Source: Halobacteriovoraceae bacterium (GTDB lineage: Bacteria > Bdellovibrionota > Bacteriovoracia > Bacteriovoracales > Bacteriovoracaceae). From it: a stretch of DNA of 64,000 nucleotides. The position numbers and the translations under genes were made by a program. The stretch lies in NCBI GenBank assembly GCA_020635115.1, contig JACKAK010000004.1:115487-179486 (forward strand), written 5' to 3'. Of the stretch, positions 36,224 through 49,425 are shown one piece after another (the first letter of the stretch is position 1; each line of letters opens with the position of its first letter). The notes beneath the pieces are model-generated. The model had not been told where the DNA came from. It did no database searches and saw nothing but the letters and a program-made list of their open reading frames with translations.

Positions 36224-36931
36224 TTGAGTGTAAAGTTAAATGTTAATATGAAAAATCAACCTGATTATACGACTTGTGGCCCTACAAGTTTGCATGCAGT
36301 TTATTCTTTCTATAATGATAAAATAGGCCTGGAGCAAATTGTTGATGATATTAATCAATTTGATCAAGGAGGCGGAACACTTGCCGTAATATTAGGTAAG
36401 CATGCGATCAAAAGAGGTTATCATGCTACAATGTTTTGTTTTAATATAAAAGTTTTTGATCCTTCTTGGTTTGAAAAAGGAAACGATTTTATTCGGAAGT
36501 GTATCAATAAGAGCATTGATACAGGAAAAATGTCAGAAAAAAGACTTTTTACACTTAAGGAGTATGAGGAGTACTTAAGATTTGGGGGAGATTTAAAGTT
36601 TAGAGATCTTTCTCAAGAATTATTAAAATCTGTTCTAGATACTAAAGTACCAATTTTAACAGGGTTAAGTTCTACTTGGCTCTATAGAGATAAAAGAGAG
36701 GACCCAATAAAAAATGAATATGACGACATCTTGGGATCACCTGCTGGGCATTTTGTTATCATTGATGGATATGAAAACAACGGGCAGTTTTCCATATGTG
36801 ATCCCTATCAAAAGAATCCAATAAATTCTACGAATCATTACTTAATTAACGGAGATAGGTTGATAAACTCTATATTATTGGGAATATCTTCCTATGATGG
36901 AAATCTACTTATAATTGAGAAAAAGAAATGA
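36224..36931 (+). CDS. papain-fold cysteine peptidase (C39-like)
   Basis: Candidate catalytic Cys in PDYTTCGPTSLHAVY, and His/Asp in PAGHFVIIDGYENNGQFSICDPY. TTG start; ATG at 36248 is an alternative. Confidence 0.55.
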   Translation: MSVKLNVNMKNQPDYTTCGPTSLHAVYSFYNDKIGLEQIVDDINQFDQGGGTLAVILGKHAIKRGYHATMFCFNIKVFDPSWFEKGNDFIRKCINKSIDTGKMSEKRLFTLKEYEEYLRFGGDLKFRDLSQELLKSVLDTKVPILTGLSSTWLYRDKREDPIKNEYDDILGSPAGHFVIIDGYENNGQFSICDPYQKNPINSTNHYLINGDRLINSILLGISSYDGNLLIIEKKK

Positions 36932-38388
36932 ATAAAAACATTATTATAGTGAACGATTCACTTGTAGAAAAATTCAAAAAATCAGGAGCTCTTGTTAGAA
37001 GTCCTATGGATTATATTCTGGGAGAATTTGAAAGAGATAAGAAATACCATATATTTAATCTCTCTTCGAATATGGGCTATCAAGAGAAAGGTTATTATGT
37101 ATCCTTACTTGCGGAGGCCAGAAAAGATAAAATATTTCCTTCGGCCAGATGTATTCAAGATTTGAATGACAAACGTATAAATAAAGTTTTATCTGAAGAT
37201 ATTAATACACTCACTCAGGCAAATCTAAGAAATATAAAATCAGACAAATTTGAATTAAGTATATATTTTGGAAAAAATATCACCTCTTCTTATAACAAAC
37301 TATCTTGGGAGTTATTTCGATTAGTCCAGGCCCCATTATTTAGAGTGTTTTTTGAAAAAAAGAATTCCTGGGAAATAAAGAAGATTTCACTACTTAGGCC
37401 TTCAGAAATTAGTGAATACCATTTGGATTTTTTAATTGAATCATCCAAAAATTATTTTGAAGAAGGGAAGTTTAGCAGATCCAGCAATAGTAAATACAAA
37501 TATGATCTCGCAATTCTGTATGATGAAAACGAGGTCTATCCCCCAAGTGACAAGAAAGCAATTAAAAACTTTGTTAATGCATTTCAGAAAAATGGGATTA
37601 AAACATATTTAATCCAAAATAGTGAAAAACCAGATATCAATAATTATGATGCACTATTTATTCGTGAAACTACAAATGTAACTCATCATACATATAGACT
37701 CTCAAGAAGTGCAGAAATTGAAAGATTAGTTGTTATAGATGATCCTGACTCAATTGTTCGTTGTACAAATAAAATTTACCTTGAACAATTACTAGAAAGA
37801 TTAAAAATTAAACGCCCTAGAACAATCATATTAGATCCTAAGAAGTATGCAAAAGGACATTGGGAAATTAAATTTCCATGCGTTATTAAAAAACCAGATT
37901 CAGCGTTTTCTCAAGGAGTTCACAAAGCAAGTACAGTTGAAGAACTCGATAACATCGCAAAAGAGCTTTTTAAAAAAACTGAACTACTACTTATCCAGGA
38001 ATACGTACCTACAGACTTCGATTGGAGGGTTGGAATTTTAAATGGTGAAATCTTGTACGTATGTAAATACTTTATGGCCAAGGGACATTGGCAAATTATC
38101 AACAATAAGGATGGAAAGTTTGATGAGGGGGGATTTGAATGTATTGATCCTATCAGTGCACCTGAAAAAGTCATCAAAATTGCTCTTAAAGTTGCAAGTG
38201 AAATTGGAATTGGACTTTACGGTGTAGATCTAAAGCAAAAAGGTGAAGATATTTATTTTATAGAGATCAATGATAACCCAAGTATAGAGGCCGGTGTCGA
38301 AGACAAACTTTTGGGGGACGAACTTTATGATAGGGTTGCAAAATTCTTTTTGAGAGAATGTAATAGAAAAAGAGGAATTCATGTCTGA
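36928..38388 (+). CDS. RimK-type ATP-grasp ligase with about 200-aa N-terminal extension (RLAN-like)
   Basis: C-terminal half: FPCVIKKPDSAFSQGV, LLIQEYVPTDFDWRVGILNGE, GLYGVDLKQKGEDIYFIEINDNPS are RimK/ATP-grasp motifs. The N-terminal 200 aa have no catalytic motif. Confidence 0.85.
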   Translation: MNKNIIIVNDSLVEKFKKSGALVRSPMDYILGEFERDKKYHIFNLSSNMGYQEKGYYVSLLAEARKDKIFPSARCIQDLNDKRINKVLSEDINTLTQANLRNIKSDKFELSIYFGKNITSSYNKLSWELFRLVQAPLFRVFFEKKNSWEIKKISLLRPSEISEYHLDFLIESSKNYFEEGKFSRSSNSKYKYDLAILYDENEVYPPSDKKAIKNFVNAFQKNGIKTYLIQNSEKPDINNYDALFIRETTNVTHHTYRLSRSAEIERLVVIDDPDSIVRCTNKIYLEQLLERLKIKRPRTIILDPKKYAKGHWEIKFPCVIKKPDSAFSQGVHKASTVEELDNIAKELFKKTELLLIQEYVPTDFDWRVGILNGEILYVCKYFMAKGHWQIINNKDGKFDEGGFECIDPISAPEKVIKIALKVASEIGIGLYGVDLKQKGEDIYFIEINDNPSIEAGVEDKLLGDELYDRVAKFFLRECNRKRGIHV

Positions 38389-39580
38389 TCATTTTGAATT
38401 ATTTTCAGTTTATGGCATAGAAGCAGAGTACATGATCGTTGATAAAGACTCCCTAAAAGTGAGAGCGATCGCTGATGAAATCTTAAAAGAATTAAACCAT
38501 GGAGAGATTTGCAATGAGGTTGATCTAGGCAAAGTGAGTTGGTCGAATGAATTAGTAAATCATGTGCTAGAAATAAAATGTACAGAACCTGAGTCATCTT
38601 TAAAAGATTTAGATATTGTTTTCCATAGGTCAGTGAAAGAAGTCCAAAAATTGTTAGATAAATGGAATTCTACTCTTATGCCCACGGCCATGAATCCATG
38701 GTTTGATCCTTTCAAAGAAACTGTTTTATGGCCTCATGGACAGCAAGAGATTTACAATCTTTATAATCAAATTTTTGACTGCAAAGGACATGGATGGTCA
38801 AATCTACAGTCTATACATATAAATCTTCCTTATAAAAATGAAGTAGAATTTATTAAATTGCATTCAGCTATCAGGTTAATTCTTCCACTCATCCCGTATT
38901 TTGCGGCCAGTTCACCATTTTATGAAAACAAGAAACAAAGGTATGCTGATAATAGATTGGCCTTCTATGAGAAAAATCAGGCCAAGGTTCCTTCAATCAT
39001 TGGTAATATTATTCCAGAAAATGTTAAGTCATTTAATGATTATGAGAATATTTTGAAAGGAATTTATCAAGATATAGATCAGTATGATCCTACAAAAACA
39101 CTTCAAAATCCTTGGCTCAATTCCAGGGCCGCAATACCCAAATTTGATGTCGGAGCTATTGAGATACGTTTAATGGACATTCAAGAATCCCCTTATATGG
39201 ATTATGTCATTATTAATCTTATTGTTGAAATGGTTAAGTTTATCTGTGAAAAAGGTAACAATTTTAAAAATGAAAAAAATTTCTCTGATAGATATTTAAG
39301 AGAAGTATATGACCAGTCAAAAGAATTTTCTCCTACATGCAATCTTGATAATTATTTTAATTTGCTTGAAATAAACTCAGAAGAAAAAACATTTGAAGAA
39401 CTTAGAAAAAAAATTATTGAGAAATTTTCAAGCGATATGGATAAAAGATATGCTCGAGGATTGAACATTTTAAAAGAAAGTGGATCTTTAGCGCAAAGGT
39501 TAGTGAAAAATAATCTATCAACCCAAATGTATAAAGATTTAATTCTTTGTCTAAATGAAAATATACCCTATGAAATCTAA
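38381..39580 (+). CDS. carboxylate-amine ligase, glutamate-cysteine ligase family 2 (GCS2/YbdK-like)
   Basis: YGIEAEYMIVD, VLEIKCTEP, IHINLP, AASSPF and AIEIRLMD follow the GCS2 motif order. Confidence 0.8.
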   Translation: MSDHFELFSVYGIEAEYMIVDKDSLKVRAIADEILKELNHGEICNEVDLGKVSWSNELVNHVLEIKCTEPESSLKDLDIVFHRSVKEVQKLLDKWNSTLMPTAMNPWFDPFKETVLWPHGQQEIYNLYNQIFDCKGHGWSNLQSIHINLPYKNEVEFIKLHSAIRLILPLIPYFAASSPFYENKKQRYADNRLAFYEKNQAKVPSIIGNIIPENVKSFNDYENILKGIYQDIDQYDPTKTLQNPWLNSRAAIPKFDVGAIEIRLMDIQESPYMDYVIINLIVEMVKFICEKGNNFKNEKNFSDRYLREVYDQSKEFSPTCNLDNYFNLLEINSEEKTFEELRKKIIEKFSSDMDKRYARGLNILKESGSLAQRLVKNNLSTQMYKDLILCLNENIPYEI

Positions 39581-40235
39581 GGTTATTATTAGCTGTGAGC
39601 ATGGGGGAGCAGAAATCCCCAAGTTTTTAAATTCATCTGTAAAGATTCCCAAAAACGTTTTAGAAAGTCATCGTGGGCTAGATAAAGGTGCACTTGATAT
39701 TGCAAAAAAATTGGGCAAAAAAATTCGATCAACGCCGATTTTAAATAAAATGACTCGACTAGTGATTGATTTTAATCGGTCACTACATAATTATAATGTT
39801 TTTAGCAAATTTTCTAAAAATCTTGATAATATATTGAAAGAAAAGTTAATTGAATTACATTCAAAACATAGAGCTAAGATTTTCAAACAAATTTCAAAAA
39901 ATACCATTCATCTATCAGTTCATTCATTTACACCTAAGATGAATGGAGTGATGAGAAACTGTGAATTCTCTATTCTTTTTGATCCAAAGAGAGCGGATGA
40001 GAGACATTTGGCCCTTGAAATAAAAAAGAAATTATCTAAATTAGGTATAAAGTGTAGATTTAACTACCCTTACTTGGGAAAATCTGATGGGGTAACAACT
40101 CATTTTCGAAAAATATTCTTAGAAGGCTATCTCGGACTAGAGCTTGAGTTTAATCAAAGAATTGTTAACCATAAAAATAAGGTTGAGACGATACTAGATG
40201 TTGTATGTGAATCTTCAAATGAATTTAAATTTTAG
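39555..40235 (+). CDS. N-formylglutamate amidohydrolase (FGase) family hydrolase
   Basis: IISCEHGGAEIP, LVIDFNRS and VHSFTP are FGase-family (PF05013-type) metal-site motifs. ATG at 39570 is an alternative start. Confidence 0.8.
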   Translation: MKIYPMKSKVIISCEHGGAEIPKFLNSSVKIPKNVLESHRGLDKGALDIAKKLGKKIRSTPILNKMTRLVIDFNRSLHNYNVFSKFSKNLDNILKEKLIELHSKHRAKIFKQISKNTIHLSVHSFTPKMNGVMRNCEFSILFDPKRADERHLALEIKKKLSKLGIKCRFNYPYLGKSDGVTTHFRKIFLEGYLGLELEFNQRIVNHKNKVETILDVVCESSNEFKF

Positions 40236-40246
40236 AAAAACTTCAA

Positions 40247-41302
40247 CTAAAACCATTTCTTCTTTTTAAAGATAAAAAGAAGTGTTACTCCTGTGAAAAA
40301 TAAAAGACCCAAGAGATAAAAATAACCATATTGCCACTTAAGTTCAGGCATATATTCAAAATTCATCCCGTATATTCCAGTGATGAAGGTAAGTGGAATA
40401 AAGATTGAAGCAAAAACGGTTAAGTATTTCATGACACTATTCATTTTATTATTGATGGAGGAAAGATGCATTTCAATAAGTCCAGAGACAATGTCGCGAA
40501 TTGTTTCAACTGATTCATAAATTTGTATACAATGATCATGTACGTCACGAAAATAAAGCGAAGTTTTTTCACTGATAAAAGGGTGTTCATCACGATTTAG
40601 TGCGGAGATAAAATCTCTGACCGGAGAAATCACTCTACGAATGTAGAGAAGTTCTTTTTTTAGCCAATGGATATCTTGAATAGTATTTTTGTTTTCTTCA
40701 ATTTTATCTTCAATTTGTTCTAATTCAATTTCTAATCTATCAATAACTTTGAAATACTCATCAACGACTGAATCAATCAGACAGTAAAATAAGTAATCAG
40801 GGCCCATTTTGCGGATTCTGCCCTTGTTCTGATGAATTCTTTCTCGAATACTGTTAAATACATCTCCCGGAAATTCTTGAAATGTGACTACTAAATTTTC
40901 TAGTAGGATGATGCTCAGTTGATCTTTTGTGAAAGTTTCTTCATTTTCATCGAAAACAATCATTTTTAACGTGGCGAAAATATACTCATCTGTGATTTCA
41001 ACTTTTGGTCTCTGAGTAGTATTTAAAATATCCTCAGTAATTAAGGGATGAATATTGAAAAAATCTCCGACTGTTCTGATAAGTTCTACATCATGTACTC
41101 CATCTATATTGACCCAAGAAATCGATCTATTTGTTAAAGTACTTGTGCAATCTAGAATATTGTCAATTGAAACTCTCTTTGAGTTTTCTTCATCATATTC
41201 TATAAGTTCAATTTGAACTTTTGTGCTTGGAGATTGATTTCCAACGTATACAAGGCTCCCTGGGACCATTCCTGACTTATCAGATTTTTTTTCAACTTTC
41301 AT
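40247..41302 (-). CDS. corA: magnesium/cobalt transporter CorA
   Basis: C-terminal YGMNFEYMPEL (GMN motif) between two TM helices. Size 351 aa. Confidence 0.92.
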   Translation of the reverse strand: MKVEKKSDKSGMVPGSLVYVGNQSPSTKVQIELIEYDEENSKRVSIDNILDCTSTLTNRSISWVNIDGVHDVELIRTVGDFFNIHPLITEDILNTTQRPKVEITDEYIFATLKMIVFDENEETFTKDQLSIILLENLVVTFQEFPGDVFNSIRERIHQNKGRIRKMGPDYLFYCLIDSVVDEYFKVIDRLEIELEQIEDKIEENKNTIQDIHWLKKELLYIRRVISPVRDFISALNRDEHPFISEKTSLYFRDVHDHCIQIYESVETIRDIVSGLIEMHLSSINNKMNSVMKYLTVFASIFIPLTFITGIYGMNFEYMPELKWQYGYFYLLGLLFFTGVTLLFIFKKKKWF

Positions 41303-41534: not shown

Positions 41535-44500
41535 ATGATATTTTTGAGAAAAAATAGATTTATTGAATTTTGCATAATTACTTCGACTATTTTCTTTTTT
41601 TCTACCAGTTCCTATTCAAGCACATGTAGGAATTCAGAAATTCAAAAAAAATACGAAATTGTCTCAGATAATTTTTTGAAAGAATCAGAAAAAATCCATA
41701 AATTATTAGTTGGTGAAAAAGTAGAAAATTATACGATTCAATCCATATTTGGAATTGATTTTGATGTAAAAAAAACGGATGAATACATTCAAAAACAAAT
41801 TAGTATAATTCAAGACCAAGAGGGAGTTTTTTTAGAAAACAAAACTCTATCCGAGTGCTTAGTTCAATTAGGTAAAAATGAGCAAAATAAAAAGCTCAAA
41901 GAATTGACAGTAAACTTAATCAATCAGAAGATTGAGCTTTTAAAAAGAAATCAAACTCTTAACGATACTTTACGTGAATCTCATATTACTGAAAGTACAT
42001 TACCTGAAATTAGAGAGAAAATAGACAGAGATTCAGCTCAAGCTCGAATTGTAAAAGAAAACCTAGAAGATTCCCTAATCAAAAAACAAAGTGAAACTTT
42101 TAAAGAAAAAAGTACTAAAAAAAGAGAAGTTCTAGAATATGAAAATACTTTAACAAAAATTAAAATCGAATTACTTAATTTAAAAATTGAAATAAACTCA
42201 GGCCTTGAAATCAAAATCAATCAATTTGAAAAATCAACCTCTGAGATTAGAGAGATAGCAAAACAAATTGAAGATAAAGATACTAAAGCATTAATTCAAA
42301 ATTTTGAAGAAATTGAGAAAATCTGGCTTTCATTGGCCAGTGAAGATTACTTTAATCTTTTTAGCGCAAATATCTCTTTAAAACTACCTCAAATCCCTGA
42401 AAGTCTCAATCAAGACAAATTTAAAGACGACATCTCTGATTCTATCAAACTCAGAGATGAAATCATTCTTTTAAGAAAAGAAATTATAAAAAATTATTCA
42501 GATAAAATAAACCAAGAACTACGACTTCTCAATCACCTTGTTGCAAGTAGTAATTCAATTAGAGAAAATATTTTCAGAAAGTTAGGGAGTTCTTTTTTCT
42601 TCAAATCACTTTTAAAATTTCAATCTTATAAAATGATAAAAAATGAAGTGAGCTCTGCTCCCTATAGAGCTGTTAGTTTTATTTATTCAAAATATCTCGC
42701 TTTTAGAGAACAACTTTCTTTAGGAAAGGAAGGTATTTTGACTTTGATGACTAAATTATTTTCACTCATAATATTAGCAATTTCTTTTTTTTCATTAAGA
42801 TATTTATTTAATAAAACGAATGAAAACGTAGATAAAATTTTTAAATATTTATTTGAAAGGAAAATTCGTTCATTCATTATAAGGAAGCTTTTCATTATTT
42901 GGAATAAAATAAAAGACAGTACTGTGCCTATTTTATGGTTAATAGTATTGGCCATCTATCAAAAATATCGTCCAGACAATGGTCTTAGTTTAATAATAAG
43001 GGCCTTGGAAGTATACTTGGTTTCTATAATATTAAAATCAATGTTAACAATATTTTTAGGGACAATTTCAAGGTTAGATATTGCAAATTTCTCAAAATTT
43101 AAAATAAAGGCCAATGAGACATCGAATAAGTTTAAAAATATTTTTCTTTTCTATTTTTTTACCATGATTATTATTGAGGCCACTATTGGTAAGGTTTACC
43201 TTTATACAATACTAAATTACTTTGTACTCATCTACTCCCTATTTCTTTTCTTTAACGAAACCTCTCATTGGGAAAATGAGTTTAGAAAATACTCAGAAAA
43301 AATGTTCTCAGGGATAATTGTAGAAAAATATTTTAGATTTTTAGATTTATGTCCTTCAAAGTTGAGGGCATCTTTTTTATTTGTATTTATTATTTTACTT
43401 ATTTTTTTCGATATTATTATTGGGCTTACTGAGAATTTTGAAATTTCAAAAAAAATATCGGCCAATCTCTTTAAAAAACAAATTGAAAAAATTGAAGCTG
43501 AAGATGGTGCTGATGATAAAATACCATCGAGTTATAAAGAACAATTTTCCTTTAAATCAATATCATCAGAAGATGAGTATGTTACAAATGGACAAGGTCT
43601 TGAAGAAAAAATTATTTTAGAAATTGATGAATGGTTAGATGATAGGTCTGATGAACATTCATTAGTGGTTTATGGGGACAAGGGAATTGGTAAAACGACT
43701 TTACTAAAAAAAGTTGGATCTACTCTGGAAAAGAGTGATAGATTAAATGTTAAATATACAAAAATGCCTGCTAAAACAGTTTCACTAGAAGCAATGAACA
43801 GTTTTTTATATTCAATATTTTTTAATGAGGCAACTACTCAAAGTTTGCATCTCTATGAATTTGACCAAAAACTTGAAAAAAATACAGTCGTGATTATAGA
43901 CGAATGCCAGAATCTATTTTTATCACATACTGGAGGATTTGAGGCCTATTATTTATTGATAAATCTTATAAATCTTAATACTGAAAAAATATTTTGGATA
44001 ATGTCATTTAATAAATATAGCTGGCTATATTTAGATCGGGCATTTGGTAGAAATCAATTTTTCAGAAATGTTTTTGAATTACAAGGATGGAGTGATTCAG
44101 CAATAAAAGATTTAATAATGAAACGGCATGTAAAAACAGGCGTAAAACTTTCTTTTGACTTGTTAATTAGTGCAACCAGATCACAAGATGAGATAGATAA
44201 GTATTCCTCAATCGAATCGAAATTTTTTAAATTACTTTGGGAATTATCTAGGGGAAATCCAAGGGCAGCGCTCTATTTGTGGATGTCGGCGCTTTCAAGA
44301 AAAAGTAAAAACGTATTTAATGTTTATATCCCAAAAGAATCAGGGCTTGATGGTATTGAGAAAATGCCTGATGAATTAATGTTTGTCATCGCACATGTTT
44401 TAAAACACGAGAACCTTTCGTCTTCTGAAATTGAGATGACAACGAACCTTCAAAAGGGTCTTGTTCGTAACGCCATAAAACTTGCTCTTGAGAAGAAGTT

Positions 44501-44600
44501 CTTTTTTAAGGATGAACGCGGACGCTACATGGTAGATATTTCTACACAATATGGACTTACTAAATACTTAAGAGTGAAAAATTTTATTTATGGAAACTGA
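41535..44600 (+). CDS. large membrane protein: signal/anchor, coiled-coil ectodomain, polytopic TM block, cytoplasmic P-loop ATPase (AAA_22/ExeA-like) plus probable wHTH
   Basis: Walker A VVYGDKGIGKTTLLKK, Walker B VVIIDECQNLF, sensor-like SRGNPRAALYLW. Residues 30-370 are heptad-rich. Residues 400-640 hold at least 6 hydrophobic helices. Confidence 0.7.
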   Translation: MIFLRKNRFIEFCIITSTIFFFSTSSYSSTCRNSEIQKKYEIVSDNFLKESEKIHKLLVGEKVENYTIQSIFGIDFDVKKTDEYIQKQISIIQDQEGVFLENKTLSECLVQLGKNEQNKKLKELTVNLINQKIELLKRNQTLNDTLRESHITESTLPEIREKIDRDSAQARIVKENLEDSLIKKQSETFKEKSTKKREVLEYENTLTKIKIELLNLKIEINSGLEIKINQFEKSTSEIREIAKQIEDKDTKALIQNFEEIEKIWLSLASEDYFNLFSANISLKLPQIPESLNQDKFKDDISDSIKLRDEIILLRKEIIKNYSDKINQELRLLNHLVASSNSIRENIFRKLGSSFFFKSLLKFQSYKMIKNEVSSAPYRAVSFIYSKYLAFREQLSLGKEGILTLMTKLFSLIILAISFFSLRYLFNKTNENVDKIFKYLFERKIRSFIIRKLFIIWNKIKDSTVPILWLIVLAIYQKYRPDNGLSLIIRALEVYLVSIILKSMLTIFLGTISRLDIANFSKFKIKANETSNKFKNIFLFYFFTMIIIEATIGKVYLYTILNYFVLIYSLFLFFNETSHWENEFRKYSEKMFSGIIVEKYFRFLDLCPSKLRASFLFVFIILLIFFDIIIGLTENFEISKKISANLFKKQIEKIEAEDGADDKIPSSYKEQFSFKSISSEDEYVTNGQGLEEKIILEIDEWLDDRSDEHSLVVYGDKGIGKTTLLKKVGSTLEKSDRLNVKYTKMPAKTVSLEAMNSFLYSIFFNEATTQSLHLYEFDQKLEKNTVVIIDECQNLFLSHTGGFEAYYLLINLINLNTEKIFWIMSFNKYSWLYLDRAFGRNQFFRNVFELQGWSDSAIKDLIMKRHVKTGVKLSFDLLISATRSQDEIDKYSSIESKFFKLLWELSRGNPRAALYLWMSALSRKSKNVFNVYIPKESGLDGIEKMPDELMFVIAHVLKHENLSSSEIEMTTNLQKGLVRNAIKLALEKKFFFKDERGRYMVDISTQYGLTKYLRVKNFIYGN

Positions 44601-45417
44601 AAATAACTTAACCCTAATGCTTTTTGATTTTTTAAAATTAGATAAAGTGATGACTTTTGTTTTTCTAATTGGTTGTATACTTATTCTTGTTAAAATTGTA
44701 ACTACATGGTCTGAAAAACTTCAACATAAATTCACTGGTAAAAGACTTGTTATTTTGCAAGTGACGACAGTATTTTCATTTGTCACCTATCTTTTTGGTG
44801 TTCTCGGTATTTTCTATTATGTTTTTCGTCCATCTAAAGAACTCTTAGTGACCGTTGGTGGTTCTGCAGCTGTTGCCTTTGGTTTTGCATTAAAGGATTT
44901 AGTTGGATCCATGATCGCAGGATTTATTCTCCTATTTGACCGTCCTTTTCAAGTCGGAGATAGGGTCAGCTTCGGCGATAAGTATGGTGAAATCAAAAGT
45001 ATTGGTCTCAGATCTGTTCGACTTGTGACTTTAGATGATAATCTTGTTACAATTCCCAATTCAAAATTTTTAACAGATATTGTATCAAGCGGTAATAGTG
45101 GTGCTTTAGATATGATGGTTGTTATTTCATTTTACTTTTCAATTTATCAAAATCTTGAAGAAGTTCGAAAAATATTACATGAAGTCGTAATCACAAGCCG
45201 ATTTGCGTATTTGGAAAAACCTGTATCTATTGTTTTTGAAGAGGCCGCTGTGTTTAATAATTTTGTCATCAAGGCAAATGTTAAGGCATACGTCATAGAT
45301 GTAAAATATGAGACATCATTTCTTTCAGATGTGACCAGTAGGGGAAATAAAGTTTTAAATGAGAAAAAGATTCTCCGGCCAGATTATGAATTTGTTGATG
45401 TCCTTCCTGAGACTTAG
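44590..45417 (+). CDS. small-conductance mechanosensitive channel (MscS family)
   Basis: Three TM helices, then FDRPFQVGDRVSFGDKYGEIKSIGLRSVRLVTLDDNLVTIPNSKF (MscS beta-domain signature). Its ATG overlaps the upstream gene by 11 nt. Confidence 0.88.
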   Translation: METENNLTLMLFDFLKLDKVMTFVFLIGCILILVKIVTTWSEKLQHKFTGKRLVILQVTTVFSFVTYLFGVLGIFYYVFRPSKELLVTVGGSAAVAFGFALKDLVGSMIAGFILLFDRPFQVGDRVSFGDKYGEIKSIGLRSVRLVTLDDNLVTIPNSKFLTDIVSSGNSGALDMMVVISFYFSIYQNLEEVRKILHEVVITSRFAYLEKPVSIVFEEAAVFNNFVIKANVKAYVIDVKYETSFLSDVTSRGNKVLNEKKILRPDYEFVDVLPET

Positions 45418-45694: not shown

Positions 45695-48493
45695 ATGATG
45701 CAAAAACTAGTTCCATTTTCAGTATTATTTTTTTGTATAGCAATCAGTCACTTCTTTACAGGAAGAGATCAAATCAAAATCCAACAAAATAGATCTATAA
45801 GCTCTTCGGATGCTTATGCACAGAATTTTTATCCATGGGGTGATAAGGCATATGTTACTTTTGAGAAAATTATACCCAAAGGGCCTGTATATGAAAATGG
45901 ACAGGCCGATGATTATGTAAGAAGAATATTTGGACTGATTTTGCAAGAGGCCCATAACATTGCAAAAGATCGATATGAAAAGAATAGTGAAGAAGAAAAT
46001 CGCATTTATTACTCTTTTTTATTATCTGCACTTTCAATTCCTCATCATGAAAGCGGCCTGGCCCATTTTAAAAGATCTCAAATTGAGGCCATTAAAAAAG
46101 ATTCAAAGGATATTCTAAAAAGTAGTCACTACGATCCAAAAGAGCATAGTGCTTGCCATGAACTATCTAATACTCTGGGAAATCGAACTGGTTTTGAAGT
46201 CATTGATTTTCTTTACGAAGATGAAATTATTCCAAAGTGCTCAAGAGATATGTTTGGAAAGAGTATGTTCCAGTTGATGAAATCCCCTTTCAATCACAAA
46301 GACTGGACAATTATGCAACTTTATATCAAATATCATCCAGCTTCGAGATACACAAATTTAACAAATAAAAGAATTCGTCCGCAAGATATGTCTAGAGATT
46401 CACAAGATCTTACTAAAAAGATATTTTTTAACACTCGTAATTCTATTAATTATGGGTTGAATTATATTTATGAAGGTCTGAATAAATTTGCAACCAATCA
46501 CGATGATGTTGATTTGTTTTGTCTAGCTGAACATTTAGATACTGGTGATATCGTCTCCGAACAGTTGAATTCTATAAATATAATGAAACATAAAAGTTTA
46601 ATGAAAAGTTCAAAATACATACAAGAAACGAAAGATGCCATTGAAGAATTACAAAATAGTGATAATCCTGAAAAAGAATTAAATGAAGATGAACGAAATG
46701 AAATTATTAATACCTTTTTCAAGTATGTTTTTGAAGATGAGATAAAAAGTAGTTGGTTTGGACTAATAAAAGAAGAAAAAGAATATTTTCCCTTTCAAGG
46801 ACATTTGAATTTTGAAAAAAGTGAATATGAGCAAGGTATGCAAGATGAAAGTCAAGTGTTGCTTCTAAAATCGACTAAAAAACAATCATCAAATATCGAT
46901 GAAACAGCGTTAAATAGAGAAACATGGGGAAATCATTTTAATGGAAAAGGAGATCCATGTAGATACTATCGTTCTATGCTATGTTTGAATTCAATGATGA
47001 ATAAATTTGATGAATATGAAAATTTTGAAGACCAAAAGAAAAGATATTTCGAAAATAAAGATGAGTATCTGAAAGAAAGGAAAGAGAAAATTGAGGATCA
47101 CAAAAAAAATGTAGAGATTGAAAAACAAAAATTAGCAAGTAATTATCTACTTATCAAAAATAAATCTGTTTGGATAAGATCTTATGCTCTATATGATCAT
47201 TCAACATCAGAACAAAAAAACGAATCCAAATGTGGAATCGGGAAACAACTTTTAAATAAATTTCCAATTGTACTGAACAAAGTAAATGTAAGGGAAGTTG
47301 AAGGAAGTGAGTACTTAAAATTAAGAAACGCTGGAATATTTAAATGGAAAGATAATAATAAAAAATTATGTAATTCAGATTTTCTTTATATACACAAAGA
47401 TTTTCTTGAGAGGGCAACATTTTCAGAACTACCCACAACAATTAAGGATGAATTAGATGAGAAATGGCTCTCAGATATGCCCTCTCAAATGAGACCAATC
47501 GATACTAGATTTGTTAATACTCCTTTTCAATTTAGTGACGAGTACAATTACTGGAGTCTTTTAATGGCAAAAGAAGGAAAGTTAATTTCTTCTAAAAAGA
47601 ATGGAAGTCTTTGGGGACGTTACTTTGTTGATTTTAAAAACGGGAAAAAAGGAGATGAAAAGAAAGAAAATATCGAAAACTTTAGATACCTATTGCAAAA
47701 ACAATTTAAGGGGCAGGAAGTTCCAGAAGTTGAACTTACTGAATCTAACTGTAAATATGCAATGAATGATATCAATTATTATAAAACGATAGACTATATA
47801 CTTGAACAAGGAAAAAGTATTTATCACGCACATTTGAAAAAAGGTACTCTTGAAAGAGATGCTCTAGATGAGATTATAAGCAATATTAAAAATCATGAAA
47901 ACTCTCGTAAATCGATTGATCTTGTTTTGCAAAATGTTTATCAAAATGATTCAAAAGTTAATAATCTAGAAAATGGAAATAGACATTTTGTTGTGTTTGG
48001 AAGTGGTTTTAATTTGAGATCTTCGCCTGAACAAGGTGATAATAAATGTGGATATCTCAAAGAGGAAAATGAATACGATTATTTTAAACCCTTTTATGTG
48101 AGGGTAAAGTCTTTAAATATGAATGAATACTACGAACTTGATCCAGAAGATGGTGCAGAAAACATAAAAAAATATATCCAAAAAAATTCATGTAAAAAGA
48201 GTGTCTTCTTACATAAAAGTGCTATGGCACCAATTCAAATTAATTTTAAAATTGATAAAATTGCTAGGTTTAAGAATGATGACGATGATCTTACTACACA
48301 TACAATATATAATGCATGTACATATGATTCTGGTGATAAATTCAAACTTTATTCAGGTGATTTCTTTGCGATAATAGGAAATAAAAAAGATGAAAATGGT
48401 GAGAATTGGATTGAAATTATTAGTACAACTGGAAAATATGGTTGCTTTGCTGAGTCTTTTTTCAAAAAATATGAATATTTAAAAGAGCTCTAA
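45695..48493 (+). CDS. large (932 aa) anchored/secreted orphan protein; possibly cell-wall active
   Basis: N-terminal hydrophobic helix. Weak lytic-transglycosylase-like signature (IPHHESGLAHF ... TIMQL). Three C-terminal segments resemble SH3b repeats (SVWIRSYAL..KCGIGK; GFNLRSSPEQGDNKCGYLK; DKFKLYSGDFFAIIG..ENWIEIISTTGKYGCF). Confidence 0.55.
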   Translation: MMQKLVPFSVLFFCIAISHFFTGRDQIKIQQNRSISSSDAYAQNFYPWGDKAYVTFEKIIPKGPVYENGQADDYVRRIFGLILQEAHNIAKDRYEKNSEEENRIYYSFLLSALSIPHHESGLAHFKRSQIEAIKKDSKDILKSSHYDPKEHSACHELSNTLGNRTGFEVIDFLYEDEIIPKCSRDMFGKSMFQLMKSPFNHKDWTIMQLYIKYHPASRYTNLTNKRIRPQDMSRDSQDLTKKIFFNTRNSINYGLNYIYEGLNKFATNHDDVDLFCLAEHLDTGDIVSEQLNSINIMKHKSLMKSSKYIQETKDAIEELQNSDNPEKELNEDERNEIINTFFKYVFEDEIKSSWFGLIKEEKEYFPFQGHLNFEKSEYEQGMQDESQVLLLKSTKKQSSNIDETALNRETWGNHFNGKGDPCRYYRSMLCLNSMMNKFDEYENFEDQKKRYFENKDEYLKERKEKIEDHKKNVEIEKQKLASNYLLIKNKSVWIRSYALYDHSTSEQKNESKCGIGKQLLNKFPIVLNKVNVREVEGSEYLKLRNAGIFKWKDNNKKLCNSDFLYIHKDFLERATFSELPTTIKDELDEKWLSDMPSQMRPIDTRFVNTPFQFSDEYNYWSLLMAKEGKLISSKKNGSLWGRYFVDFKNGKKGDEKKENIENFRYLLQKQFKGQEVPEVELTESNCKYAMNDINYYKTIDYILEQGKSIYHAHLKKGTLERDALDEIISNIKNHENSRKSIDLVLQNVYQNDSKVNNLENGNRHFVVFGSGFNLRSSPEQGDNKCGYLKEENEYDYFKPFYVRVKSLNMNEYYELDPEDGAENIKKYIQKNSCKKSVFLHKSAMAPIQINFKIDKIARFKNDDDDLTTHTIYNACTYDSGDKFKLYSGDFFAIIGNKKDENGENWIEIISTTGKYGCFAESFFKKYEYLKEL

Positions 48494-48495
48494 AG

Positions 48496-49425
48496 ATGAA
48501 AAAAAATATATTAGCAGGCATTATTATTTCTCTTGTTATGGCCATATGGGCATTTTTGAATTTAGAAATCTATTCAAAACAAATCCATAAACAAGCTGAA
48601 AACCAAAAGAAAGAACAAATTAAAAATGAAATAAATTCTATACCAGAACCTGAAAATAAAGTTGTATTTGAAAGTGATCAAAAAACAGATTTATTAGATA
48701 ATATGATTTCAAATGATCCAATTGTTAGTAGACTTTTATCAATGAGGCCTGCTGAGATTAATAAGCTTAAACTCAAAAAACAAGAAATTCAAAGTTATAT
48801 TAGTAAATCAGAACAATTAATATCAATGCTCACAATATGCCTTCTAAAAAATAAATGTGCTCCTGAAGATGAATTCAAACGTGACCCTGATCAAAACACA
48901 ATTACGGATAAATTAGAAAAAATAGTCAAAAATTTGAATTTATTATTGGAAAAAAATCCAGGAATTTATAATGTATATTTCAGTAAATATTTTCGACTTT
49001 TTAATCTTGATAATGAATTTATTATGGAAAATACTTCAGCATTATTATTAAAAACAGTAAATGATGAGAAAACGGCGTTGGCATTTTTAAAAAAAATGGA
49101 TGATGTAAAAACAAATTCTATCACATCCTACCTAAACACAATCAGTAATAAAAACTTTTTAAAGAAATTTGACCTTGAGAAAGAGTTTAATGAATTACTC
49201 ATTGAACAAGCTTTAGAACGAAAAAGTTATGATGTTGGATTGTTTTTAGATTTTTTACTATTAAACGATTTTCCCAAAGATCTGACAGAAGATTTCATAA
49301 ACGCATTTTGTGCAAGAGATGAAATCCATATTAATAGTGAGGCCTTAAGACCAATTCGCAAAAAAATTGATATTTTCACTGAAAAGTTTAATGACTTAGA
49401 ACTACAAGAATGTCTACCTGATTAA
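48496..49425 (+). CDS. membrane-anchored hypothetical protein
   Basis: Single N-terminal TM helix (ILAGIIISLVMAIWAFL). Starts 2 nt after the previous stop. Confidence 0.5.
   Translation: MKKNILAGIIISLVMAIWAFLNLEIYSKQIHKQAENQKKEQIKNEINSIPEPENKVVFESDQKTDLLDNMISNDPIVSRLLSMRPAEINKLKLKKQEIQSYISKSEQLISMLTICLLKNKCAPEDEFKRDPDQNTITDKLEKIVKNLNLLLEKNPGIYNVYFSKYFRLFNLDNEFIMENTSALLLKTVNDEKTALAFLKKMDDVKTNSITSYLNTISNKNFLKKFDLEKEFNELLIEQALERKSYDVGLFLDFLLLNDFPKDLTEDFINAFCARDEIHINSEALRPIRKKIDIFTEKFNDLELQECLPD

Follow-up and report, generated by a model that had tools for sequence, protein, structure and literature searches.

Channels of the MscS family are the textbook case of gating by the force of the lipid bilayer. 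The variations on this family that have been described are domains fused in cis, namely extra transmembrane (TM) helices, periplasmic rings and a cyclic-nucleotide-binding domain. The periplasmic part of MscK and MscM, about 470 amino acids (aa) in two helical bundles, assembles into a ring; this ring and eight additional TM helices, both joined in cis to the MscS-type core, modulate it, and in MscM one TM helix is also prolonged into the cytoplasm, where it talks to the cytoplasmic cage (PMC13591265). Such add-ons are therefore able to control this type of pore. Here, we describe a locus of a Halobacteriovoraceae bacterium (contig JACKAK010000004.1, positions 115,487 to 179,486; this whole stretch of 64,000 nucleotides is called the window, and its own numbering is used below) in which the gene for an MscS-type channel directly follows, and overlaps, the gene for a large membrane-embedded AAA+ ATPase. 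The channel is of a known kind, and its obligate partner, the proposed AAA+ accessory subunit, is new, as is the 690-residue front end of that partner, for which there is no family model. The pairing suggests an undescribed type of pressure-valve channel that is controlled by ATP. No account of an ATPase partner for an MscS-type channel turned up in full-text searches of the literature, and the words ATPase, auxiliary and partner are all absent from a review of MscS-like gating dated September 2026 (PMC13591265). The two genes and their junction are as follows.

41535-44600, + strand: gene for the membrane AAA+ protein, 1021 aa, the proposed accessory subunit (open reading frame (ORF); homologs)
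44590-45417, + strand: gene for the MscS-family channel, 275 aa (ORF; Pfam MS_channel_2nd)
44590-44600, + strand: stop/start overlap of 11 nucleotides (nt) (sequence)

The pairing was followed from both sides. The ATPase was found at 56 loci in species-representative genomes, and an MscS-like ORF lay directly downstream on the same strand in 55 of these; the exception is cut by a contig end inside the ATPase gene, which leaves the channel gene next in line in 55 of 55 informative genome loci. These downstream ORFs matched the channel of the window at phmmer E-values of 1e-58 to 1e-146. From the channel side, metagenome contigs were scanned with motifs specific to the partner channel. In the best 80 of 520 relatives obtained, the ATPase was directly upstream in 69 loci, in one more it was upstream behind an ORF-calling artefact, and the remaining 10 had no upstream DNA, which amounts to 70 of 70 informative loci among those best 80. 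The pairing of ATPase and channel is obligate in both directions. An initial annotation of this DNA had named the absence of the pair from other genomes as the outcome that would speak against a functional link, and the two scans found the opposite. Clustering of all flanking ORFs yielded no conserved third gene, the next commonest neighbour being present in 12 of 59 loci, and relatives at 24-28% identity kept the pair within unrelated neighbourhoods. The pairwise distances of the ATPases and those of the channels were correlated with r = 0.92. The channel is far more constrained, with a mean identity of 56% among partner channels versus 34% for the ATPase core.

The 3′ end of the ATPase gene (...TAT GGA AAC TGA) spans ATGGAAACTGA, and the ATG of the channel lies inside its Tyr-Gly codons. 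The conserved tail of the ATPase, KNFIYG (window 44581-44600; same junction in L001-L146), is thus dual-coding, with TAT GGn giving the channel ATG. Due to this dual coding the overlap is fixed at 11 nt (Y-G-x-stop) or 8 nt (Y-x-stop), depending on the lineage: Bacteriovoracia usually have 11 nt and the other lineages 8 nt, and one of these two lengths was seen in most of about 125 loci. No obvious Shine-Dalgarno sequence was found at close distance to the channel ATG. Judged from its sequence, the gene arrangement is suited to translational coupling. Both genes are real, since the large protein is 100% identical to an NCBI entry named 'AAA family ATPase' from a Halobacteriovoraceae metagenome-assembled genome (MAG) and has hundreds of homologs. 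The DNA around the pair has 27-34% G+C, which makes long chance ORFs unlikely, and the two ORFs and their overlap had been called exactly in the initial annotation. A scan for promoters and terminators was uninformative in this AT-rich DNA (23 promoter-like sites versus 21.9 expected).

The channel is laid out in the following parts.

44647-44937, + strand: three TM helices of the channel
44896-45081, + strand: beta domain of the channel, after which a C-terminal alpha/beta domain follows

The Pfam model MS_channel_2nd (PF00924), which represents the beta domain past the pore helix, matched the channel with 70 bits against a cut-off of 20.2 (E = 1.8e-19), and the NCBIfam models of MscK, MscS and MscM matched it at sub-threshold scores. 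The solved structures matched were those of MscK (E = 1.3e-14), T. tengcongensis MscS, YnaI, MscM and E. coli MscS. When 48 partner channels were compared in the numbering of E. coli MscS, positions G101, A106, G108 and G121 were invariant. In the hydrophobic gate the L105 position was V in 46 of the 48 channels and the L109 position was F or L, and the positions of G113 and F127 were both occupied by Asp. By the Pfam match and the Gly/Ala pattern of its pore, the channel is a canonical three-TM MscS, as had been called, and presumably heptameric. A basic loop between TM1 and TM2 (K-F-x-x-x-R-L) was also conserved in the partner channels; the regions concerned are aa 40-55 and 103-117 of the channel. 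E. coli MscS has the opposite charge pattern here, D62 with R128/R131. The Asp residues and the basic loop could make up a swapped salt bridge, or a site at which the ATPase subunit docks.

The C-terminal third of the large protein contains the following features.

43635-44093, + strand: AAA+ nucleotide-binding domain, aa 701-853 (Pfam AAA_22; fold matches to Orc1/Cdc6)
43674-43697, + strand: Walker A, GDKGIGKT, aa 714-721
43887-43904, + strand: Walker B, VVIIDE, aa 785-790
44094-44291, + strand: AAA+ lid domain, aa 854-919, with the R864-H865 pair (conservation; predicted secondary structure)
44253-44264, + strand: sensor-2-like motif GNPR, aa 907-910
44292-44597, + strand: winged helix and conserved C-terminal tail, aa 920-1021, with H958, L1012 and KNFIYGN (model; fold alignment)

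Pfam AAA_22 matched residues 705-819 with 36.9 bits against a cut-off of 27 (E = 5e-9). With this score and with Walker A, Walker B, sensor-1 and sensor-2 in canonical order, the module has the marks of an AAA+ ATPase, and the Walker A, Walker B and GNPR motifs that had been read from the window sequence were all present. Residue conservation was assessed across 139 family members. Walker A follows the pattern GxxGxGK[ST], with G714, G717, G719 and K720 conserved at 96-100% (K720 at 98%). D789 of Walker B is conserved at 98%, the residue 790 after it is D in 43%, E in 37% and N in 14% of members, and N793, further past Walker B, reaches 91%. Sensor-1 is N826 (79%), and in the sensor-2 region G907 (98%), N908 (91%) and P909 (99%) precede position 910, which is R in 66% and K in 10%. 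In the lid H865 is conserved at 96%, and in the winged-helix region H958 at 98%. Candidates for an arginine finger are position 839, R or K in 50% of members, and R864, which is conserved at 83% but is within the lid.

Two AlphaFold2 models were made, each from an alignment of 9 sequences, one of the full-length protein (mean predicted local distance difference test score (pLDDT) 69) and one of residues 1-690 (mean pLDDT 75). The winged helix shows a helix-helix-helix-hairpin pattern in the model and aligns with the winged helix of Orc1/Cdc6. A Foldseek search with the full-length model placed Orc1/Cdc6 and ORC subunits first, at E-values of 1e-6 to 1e-5 over about 400 aligned columns; the top 8 matches are Orc, Cdc6 or ORC-complex chains, and the model pLDDT in that region is 45-85. 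NLR and Avs STAND proteins (signal transduction ATPases with numerous domains), clamp-loader subunits and TnsC followed. A sequence search of the PDB with the large protein gave weak P-loop matches only, the best being the NB-ARC domain of ZAR1. Among 47 diverse members of the ATPase family, Pfam matches were found to AAA_22 in 46, AAA_16 in 30, nSTAND3 in 17, NB-ARC in 10 and NACHT in 10, and in the C-terminal tail to MarR_2 in 3 and TFIIE_alpha in 2. The module is an Orc/Cdc6- or STAND-like switch ATPase and not an unfoldase. The term 'ExeA/AAA_22-like', used for it in the initial annotation, holds for the AAA_22 match, but with its lid and winged helix the module is better described by the Orc1/Cdc6- and STAND-like matches of Foldseek.

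The size of the ATPase family became evident in an exhaustive HMMER profile search over 1.84 billion representatives. It returned 2950 proteins at E <= 1e-3 and 999 at E <= 1e-30, counted as clusters at 50% identity; a word-indexed homolog search had returned only 9 proteins, and the same 9 with a 47-sequence profile. The best 150 members all reach 368 bits or more, and most of them are 850-1080 aa long; shorter forms lack the first 200 or so residues. By length, no fusion of ATPase and MscS was seen among these 150. Where names are given they read 'hypothetical protein', 'AAA family ATPase', 'ATP-binding protein' or a misnomer, and the clusters of 10 distant members are named 'hypothetical protein' or not at all. 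NCBIfam and PADLOC gave zero matches. The 56 genome loci belong mostly to Bdellovibrionota (Halobacteriovorax, Bacteriovorax, Bdellovibrio), and the others to Thiobacillus, Chromatiaceae, Methylophilaceae, Gallionellaceae and MAGs of gamma- and alphaproteobacteria. In the cultured strain Caulobacter sp. NIBR2454 the pair (WP_269717132.1 and WP_269717133.1) is located on a plasmid, pNIBR24541, with a 4-nt overlap and is accompanied by a second MscS gene. Another cultured carrier is Bacteriovorax sp. DB6_IX. No copy of the pair was found in phage genomes.

The front end of the large protein was divided as follows.

41559-41621, + strand: predicted signal peptide or signal anchor, aa 9-29, after the basic stretch RKNR (hydropathy 1.9)
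41622-42734, + strand: all-helical, probably periplasmic domain, aa 30-400 (AlphaFold2 helices, pLDDT about 75-90)
42735-43430, + strand: membrane block of six hydrophobic helices, aa 401-632 (family-averaged hydropathy, K/R-rich loops, AlphaFold2 helices)
43431-43634, + strand: highly conserved juxtamembrane helix and linker, aa 633-700, ENFEISKKISANLFKKQ, with K639, Y667, F671 and W700 (conservation)

In the AlphaFold2 models an N-terminal hydrophobic helix is followed by an all-helical part from residue 30 to about 400, by helices at 398-655 and then by the alpha/beta domain, a four-helix lid and the winged helix. The order of domains proposed initially (signal or anchor, helical ectodomain, TM block, AAA_22 ATPase, winged helix) was right. 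No Pfam model covers residues 1-690. A hydrophobic N-terminal segment like that of the window protein is present in 119 of the 139 family members. The distal half of the helical domain is variable and absent from the short forms; the membrane-proximal half is conserved (W264, R343, E371, P376). The window protein has a Cys31/Cys108 pair, Cys31 is Cys in 84% of the members having that column, and most long forms of the family contain exactly two Cys. The basic-then-hydrophobic N-terminus and the Cys pair in the long forms argue that the N-terminal domain would be exported. Support for the 'heptad-rich coiled coil' assigned to this region is weak: AlphaFold2 predicts helices of up to 58 residues within residues 30-400, but the 3.5-residue periodicity is modest at z = 2.1 above shuffles.

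The six hydrophobic helices are at 401-423, 462-478, 483-511, 535-553, 555-574 and 610-632. Loops of 3-4 residues join helices 2-3 and 4-5, which gives the arrangement single, hairpin, hairpin, single. An exported N-terminal domain and a cytoplasmic ATPase need an odd number of membrane crossings, and with six spanning helices the ATPase would be on the same side of the membrane as the N-terminal domain. One of the hydrophobic helices is hence probably not membrane-spanning, and the likeliest candidate by composition is helix 483-511, the least hydrophobic one, with aromatic and charged residues in most members. The six helices of the earlier 'at least 6 TM helices' are accordingly there, but probably not all of them cross the membrane. 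The columns of the juxtamembrane helix and linker are invariant or nearly so in 111-139 sequences.

An 'MscK-like front end' had been proposed for the large protein, and homology to MscK/MscM was assessed in several ways. Neither PF12795 (MscS_porin) nor PF12794 (MscS_TM), both of which are carried by true MscK homologs, matched the window protein at E <= 1. The two models were also outside the 25 most-matched Pfam families for the 47 diverse members, and families below these match at most 2 members each. The hhalign probability was 0.6% against E. coli MscK and 1.4% against a profile of the MscK/MscM N-terminal region, compared with 98.9% in the positive control of partner MscS against MscK core; the MscK N-terminal profile is of low diversity (Neff 2.1, its homologs being enterobacterial only and at least 80% identical), so that a very remote relationship could escape it. 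Foldseek with the model of residues 1-690 found nothing at E <= 1e-3; BAR-like helical bundles came on top, and MscK (7uw5_A) was matched at E = 0.42 with a TM-score of 0.11-0.12. Homology of the front end to MscK/MscM was rejected as unsupported by Pfam, by the two hhalign comparisons and by Foldseek. The resemblance to MscK is one of architectural analogy only, and in that sense alone can the earlier designation be kept.

We propose that the two genes encode a two-subunit inner-membrane complex, with either the gating or the assembly of the pore under the control of the accessory subunit through its nucleotide state, and we consider the chances of this reading to be about evenly balanced. 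The small protein would form an MscS-type pore, presumably a heptamer. The large protein would be its dedicated accessory subunit, contributing an exported helical domain, extra membrane helices and a cytoplasmic AAA+ module with lid and winged helix, and the bundle of extra membrane helices could pack around the paddles of the pore. ATPases of the Orc1/Cdc6 and STAND classes are nucleotide-dependent switches of assembly or conformation and not unfoldases. From this class membership it is proposed that binding and hydrolysis of ATP would alter the oligomeric or conformational state of the accessory subunits. The altered state would set whether, or at what membrane tension, the pore opens; alternatively, it would control whether the pore assembles. 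By analogy with MscK/MscM, a further input, from the envelope or from ions, may enter through the exported helical domain. The proposal starts from the obligate two-way pairing, the gene arrangement suited to coupling, the parallel divergence of the two proteins, the intact motifs for nucleotide binding and hydrolysis and the intact canonical pore; from these we infer physical association, a stoichiometry, a direction of control and sensing by the exported domain. A more specific version, about which we are tentative and which we hold to be rather less probable than not, is a stoichiometric hetero-oligomer (e.g. 7:7) in which an Orc/STAND-like AAA+ ring under or around the MscS cage would gate the pore by ATP and the exported domain would add envelope or ionic input. 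If true, this would be the first mechanosensitive channel of the MscS type under the control of an ATPase, and a naturally occurring 'split MscK' to which a motor or switch has been added.

Several points weigh against the two-subunit complex. The correlation between the distances of ATPase and channel is expected from shared ancestry alone as well. The membrane topology has the parity problem noted above, six hydrophobic helices where an odd number of crossings is needed, and the front end has no detectable homology to MscK/MscM. In addition, no classical arginine finger is clearly conserved, which makes ring-type cooperative hydrolysis uncertain.

The membrane AAA_22 ATPase ExeA/GspA helps secretin assembly, and the large protein might by the same token be an assembly, insertion or quality-control factor, which would drive assembly or turnover of the channel heptamer with ATP and would not be a stable gating subunit. 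It shares Pfam AAA_22 with ExeA, Orc1/Cdc6-like ATPases are loaders and assemblers, and obligate pairing and the stop/start overlap fit such a factor equally well. Canonical MscS channels are, however, established to assemble unaided, and a chaperone would have no need of the large conserved TM block and ectodomain. Translational coupling moreover suggests near-equimolar production, which is commoner for stoichiometric subunits than for catalytic helpers, and we regard the assembly role as unlikely. The winged helix at the C-terminus bears on another explanation, a signalling device in which the MscS-like protein or the exported domain senses the envelope or tension and the tethered AAA+/winged-helix part is the output, e.g. 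through DNA binding like that of ToxR/CadC. The winged helix of Orc1/Cdc6 does bind DNA, MarR_2 or TFIIE_alpha was matched in a few members, and an exported domain, a TM block and a cytoplasmic switch together have a receptor-like layout; yet in Orc/STAND modules the winged helix is integral to the nucleotide switch. The flanks conserve the pair alone, with no constant target gene or operator context, and the fully conserved pore-lining residues of the channel argue that conduction matters. These considerations make a signalling device quite improbable in our view.

Slightly less probable again is an abortive-infection or conflict system, in which the STAND-like NTPase would sense invasion at the envelope and open the pore as an effector that depolarises the cell. 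Membrane-embedded defence systems are known, one copy of the pair is on a plasmid, and the ATPase has weak matches to nSTAND3, nSTAND6, NB-ARC and NACHT as well as fold matches to Avs4 and plant resistosomes. The partner channel, on the other hand, is strongly conserved and not diversifying, and the ATPase is without C-terminal sensor repeats. A comparison with known anti-phage systems gave no PADLOC matches and no phage copies, and the flanks consist of metabolic and housekeeping genes instead of defence islands. The synteny with a RimK/AstE cluster in Bacteriovoracia, described below, suggests vertical inheritance.

If the two-subunit complex is true, a whole branch of MscS-type channels would be under energy-dependent control. 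Among the sources of the roughly 1,000 clusters are predatory Bdellovibrionota and sulfur-, iron- and methyl-oxidising Proteobacteria, besides other lineages. Questions would be opened on regulated solute release, on envelope sensing and on how a large pore is kept shut, and the Orc/STAND-like switch ATPases would gain a new membrane-embedded branch with a region of about 690 residues that has no family model. Because the pair is small and self-contained and occurs in cultured strains, the proposal is directly testable.

The surroundings of the pair displayed several recurring genes. In about 10 Bacteriovoracia loci a RimB-like protease, RimK and an AstE/AspA-like deacylase are encoded directly upstream of the pair (e.g. 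L001 5647-7990, L014, L024, L025), an arrangement not seen outside Bacteriovoracia; this may reflect no more than synteny within the lineage, or else a loose connection with glutamate and osmolyte metabolism. Just upstream of the pair in the window, four mostly overlapping genes (36224-40235, + strand) encode a C39-like peptidase, an ATP-grasp protein with RLAN and RimK domains, a GCS2-type carboxylate-amine ligase and an FGase-like amidohydrolase, which together look like a cassette for ligation or modification of peptides or amino acids. A second, non-partner MscS paralog is often found right after or near the pair (L006 11847-12707; L066 7634-8572; L001 2942-3808). CorA recurs near the pair as well, in the window at 40247-41302 (minus strand) and in L001. 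Downstream in the window there are two adjacent ORFs of 932 and 309 aa with signal-like N-termini (45695-48493 and 48496-49425, + strand), located in the most AT-rich part of the window (27-29% G+C). They had zero matches in Pfam, NCBIfam and PADLOC.

With regard to known systems, the ATPase module is nearest in fold to Orc1/Cdc6, the chains 7tji_I, 2qby_A and 1fnn_A being the best matches for residues ~690-1021 (E-values 1e-6 to 1e-5). The domain order of AAA+ base, helical lid and C-terminal winged helix is the same, as is a sensor-2-like G-x-x-R in the lid. Orc1/Cdc6 proteins are, however, soluble DNA-binding replication initiators, whereas the window protein is an integral membrane protein paired with a channel, and the identity is 12-17%. 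The likeness to STAND proteins consists of weak Pfam matches in 10-17 of the 47 members, a Walker B of the hhhhD[D/E] type and the fold matches to ZAR1 and Avs4. We also take H958 (98%), in the winged-helix region, to recall the ADP-contacting His of STAND proteins. Unlike in STAND proteins, sensor-1 is Asn as in classical AAA+ ATPases, the gene was not found in defence contexts, and the protein ends after the winged helix with no Pfam repeat families of the kind that form a C-terminal STAND sensor (TPR, WD40, LRR).

ExeA has an N-terminal ATPase, a single TM helix and a peptidoglycan-binding periplasmic domain. The large protein has in common with ExeA/GspA the AAA_22 domain, the membrane anchoring and a connection of cytoplasmic ATP use with a domain in the periplasm and with an oligomeric, channel-like partner. 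It differs in having its ATPase at the C-terminus, in being polytopic and in being paired with an MscS channel instead of a secretin; no Pfam match to a peptidoglycan-binding domain was found in it. The locus is laid out like MscK (KefA) and MscM (YjeP), with a signal peptide, with a periplasmic domain that is large, all-helical and in two parts, with additional TM helices (about 5-6 here versus eight in MscK/MscM) and with an MscS-type three-helix pore and its cytoplasmic cage, and the best solved-structure match of the window channel is the MscK core (E = 1.3e-14; hhalign probability 98.9%). Unlike MscK and MscM, which have no AAA+ ATPase, the locus encodes its pore as a polypeptide of its own and has such an ATPase at the end of the large protein. 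The only nucleotide link to an MscS-type pore described until now is that of the bCNG channels (bacterial, gated by cyclic nucleotides) with their cyclic-nucleotide-binding domain (PMC13591265). In bCNG channels this domain belongs in cis to the channel protein, has a cyclic nucleotide as its ligand and is no ATPase, whereas the partner of the channel described here is a separate AAA+ protein.

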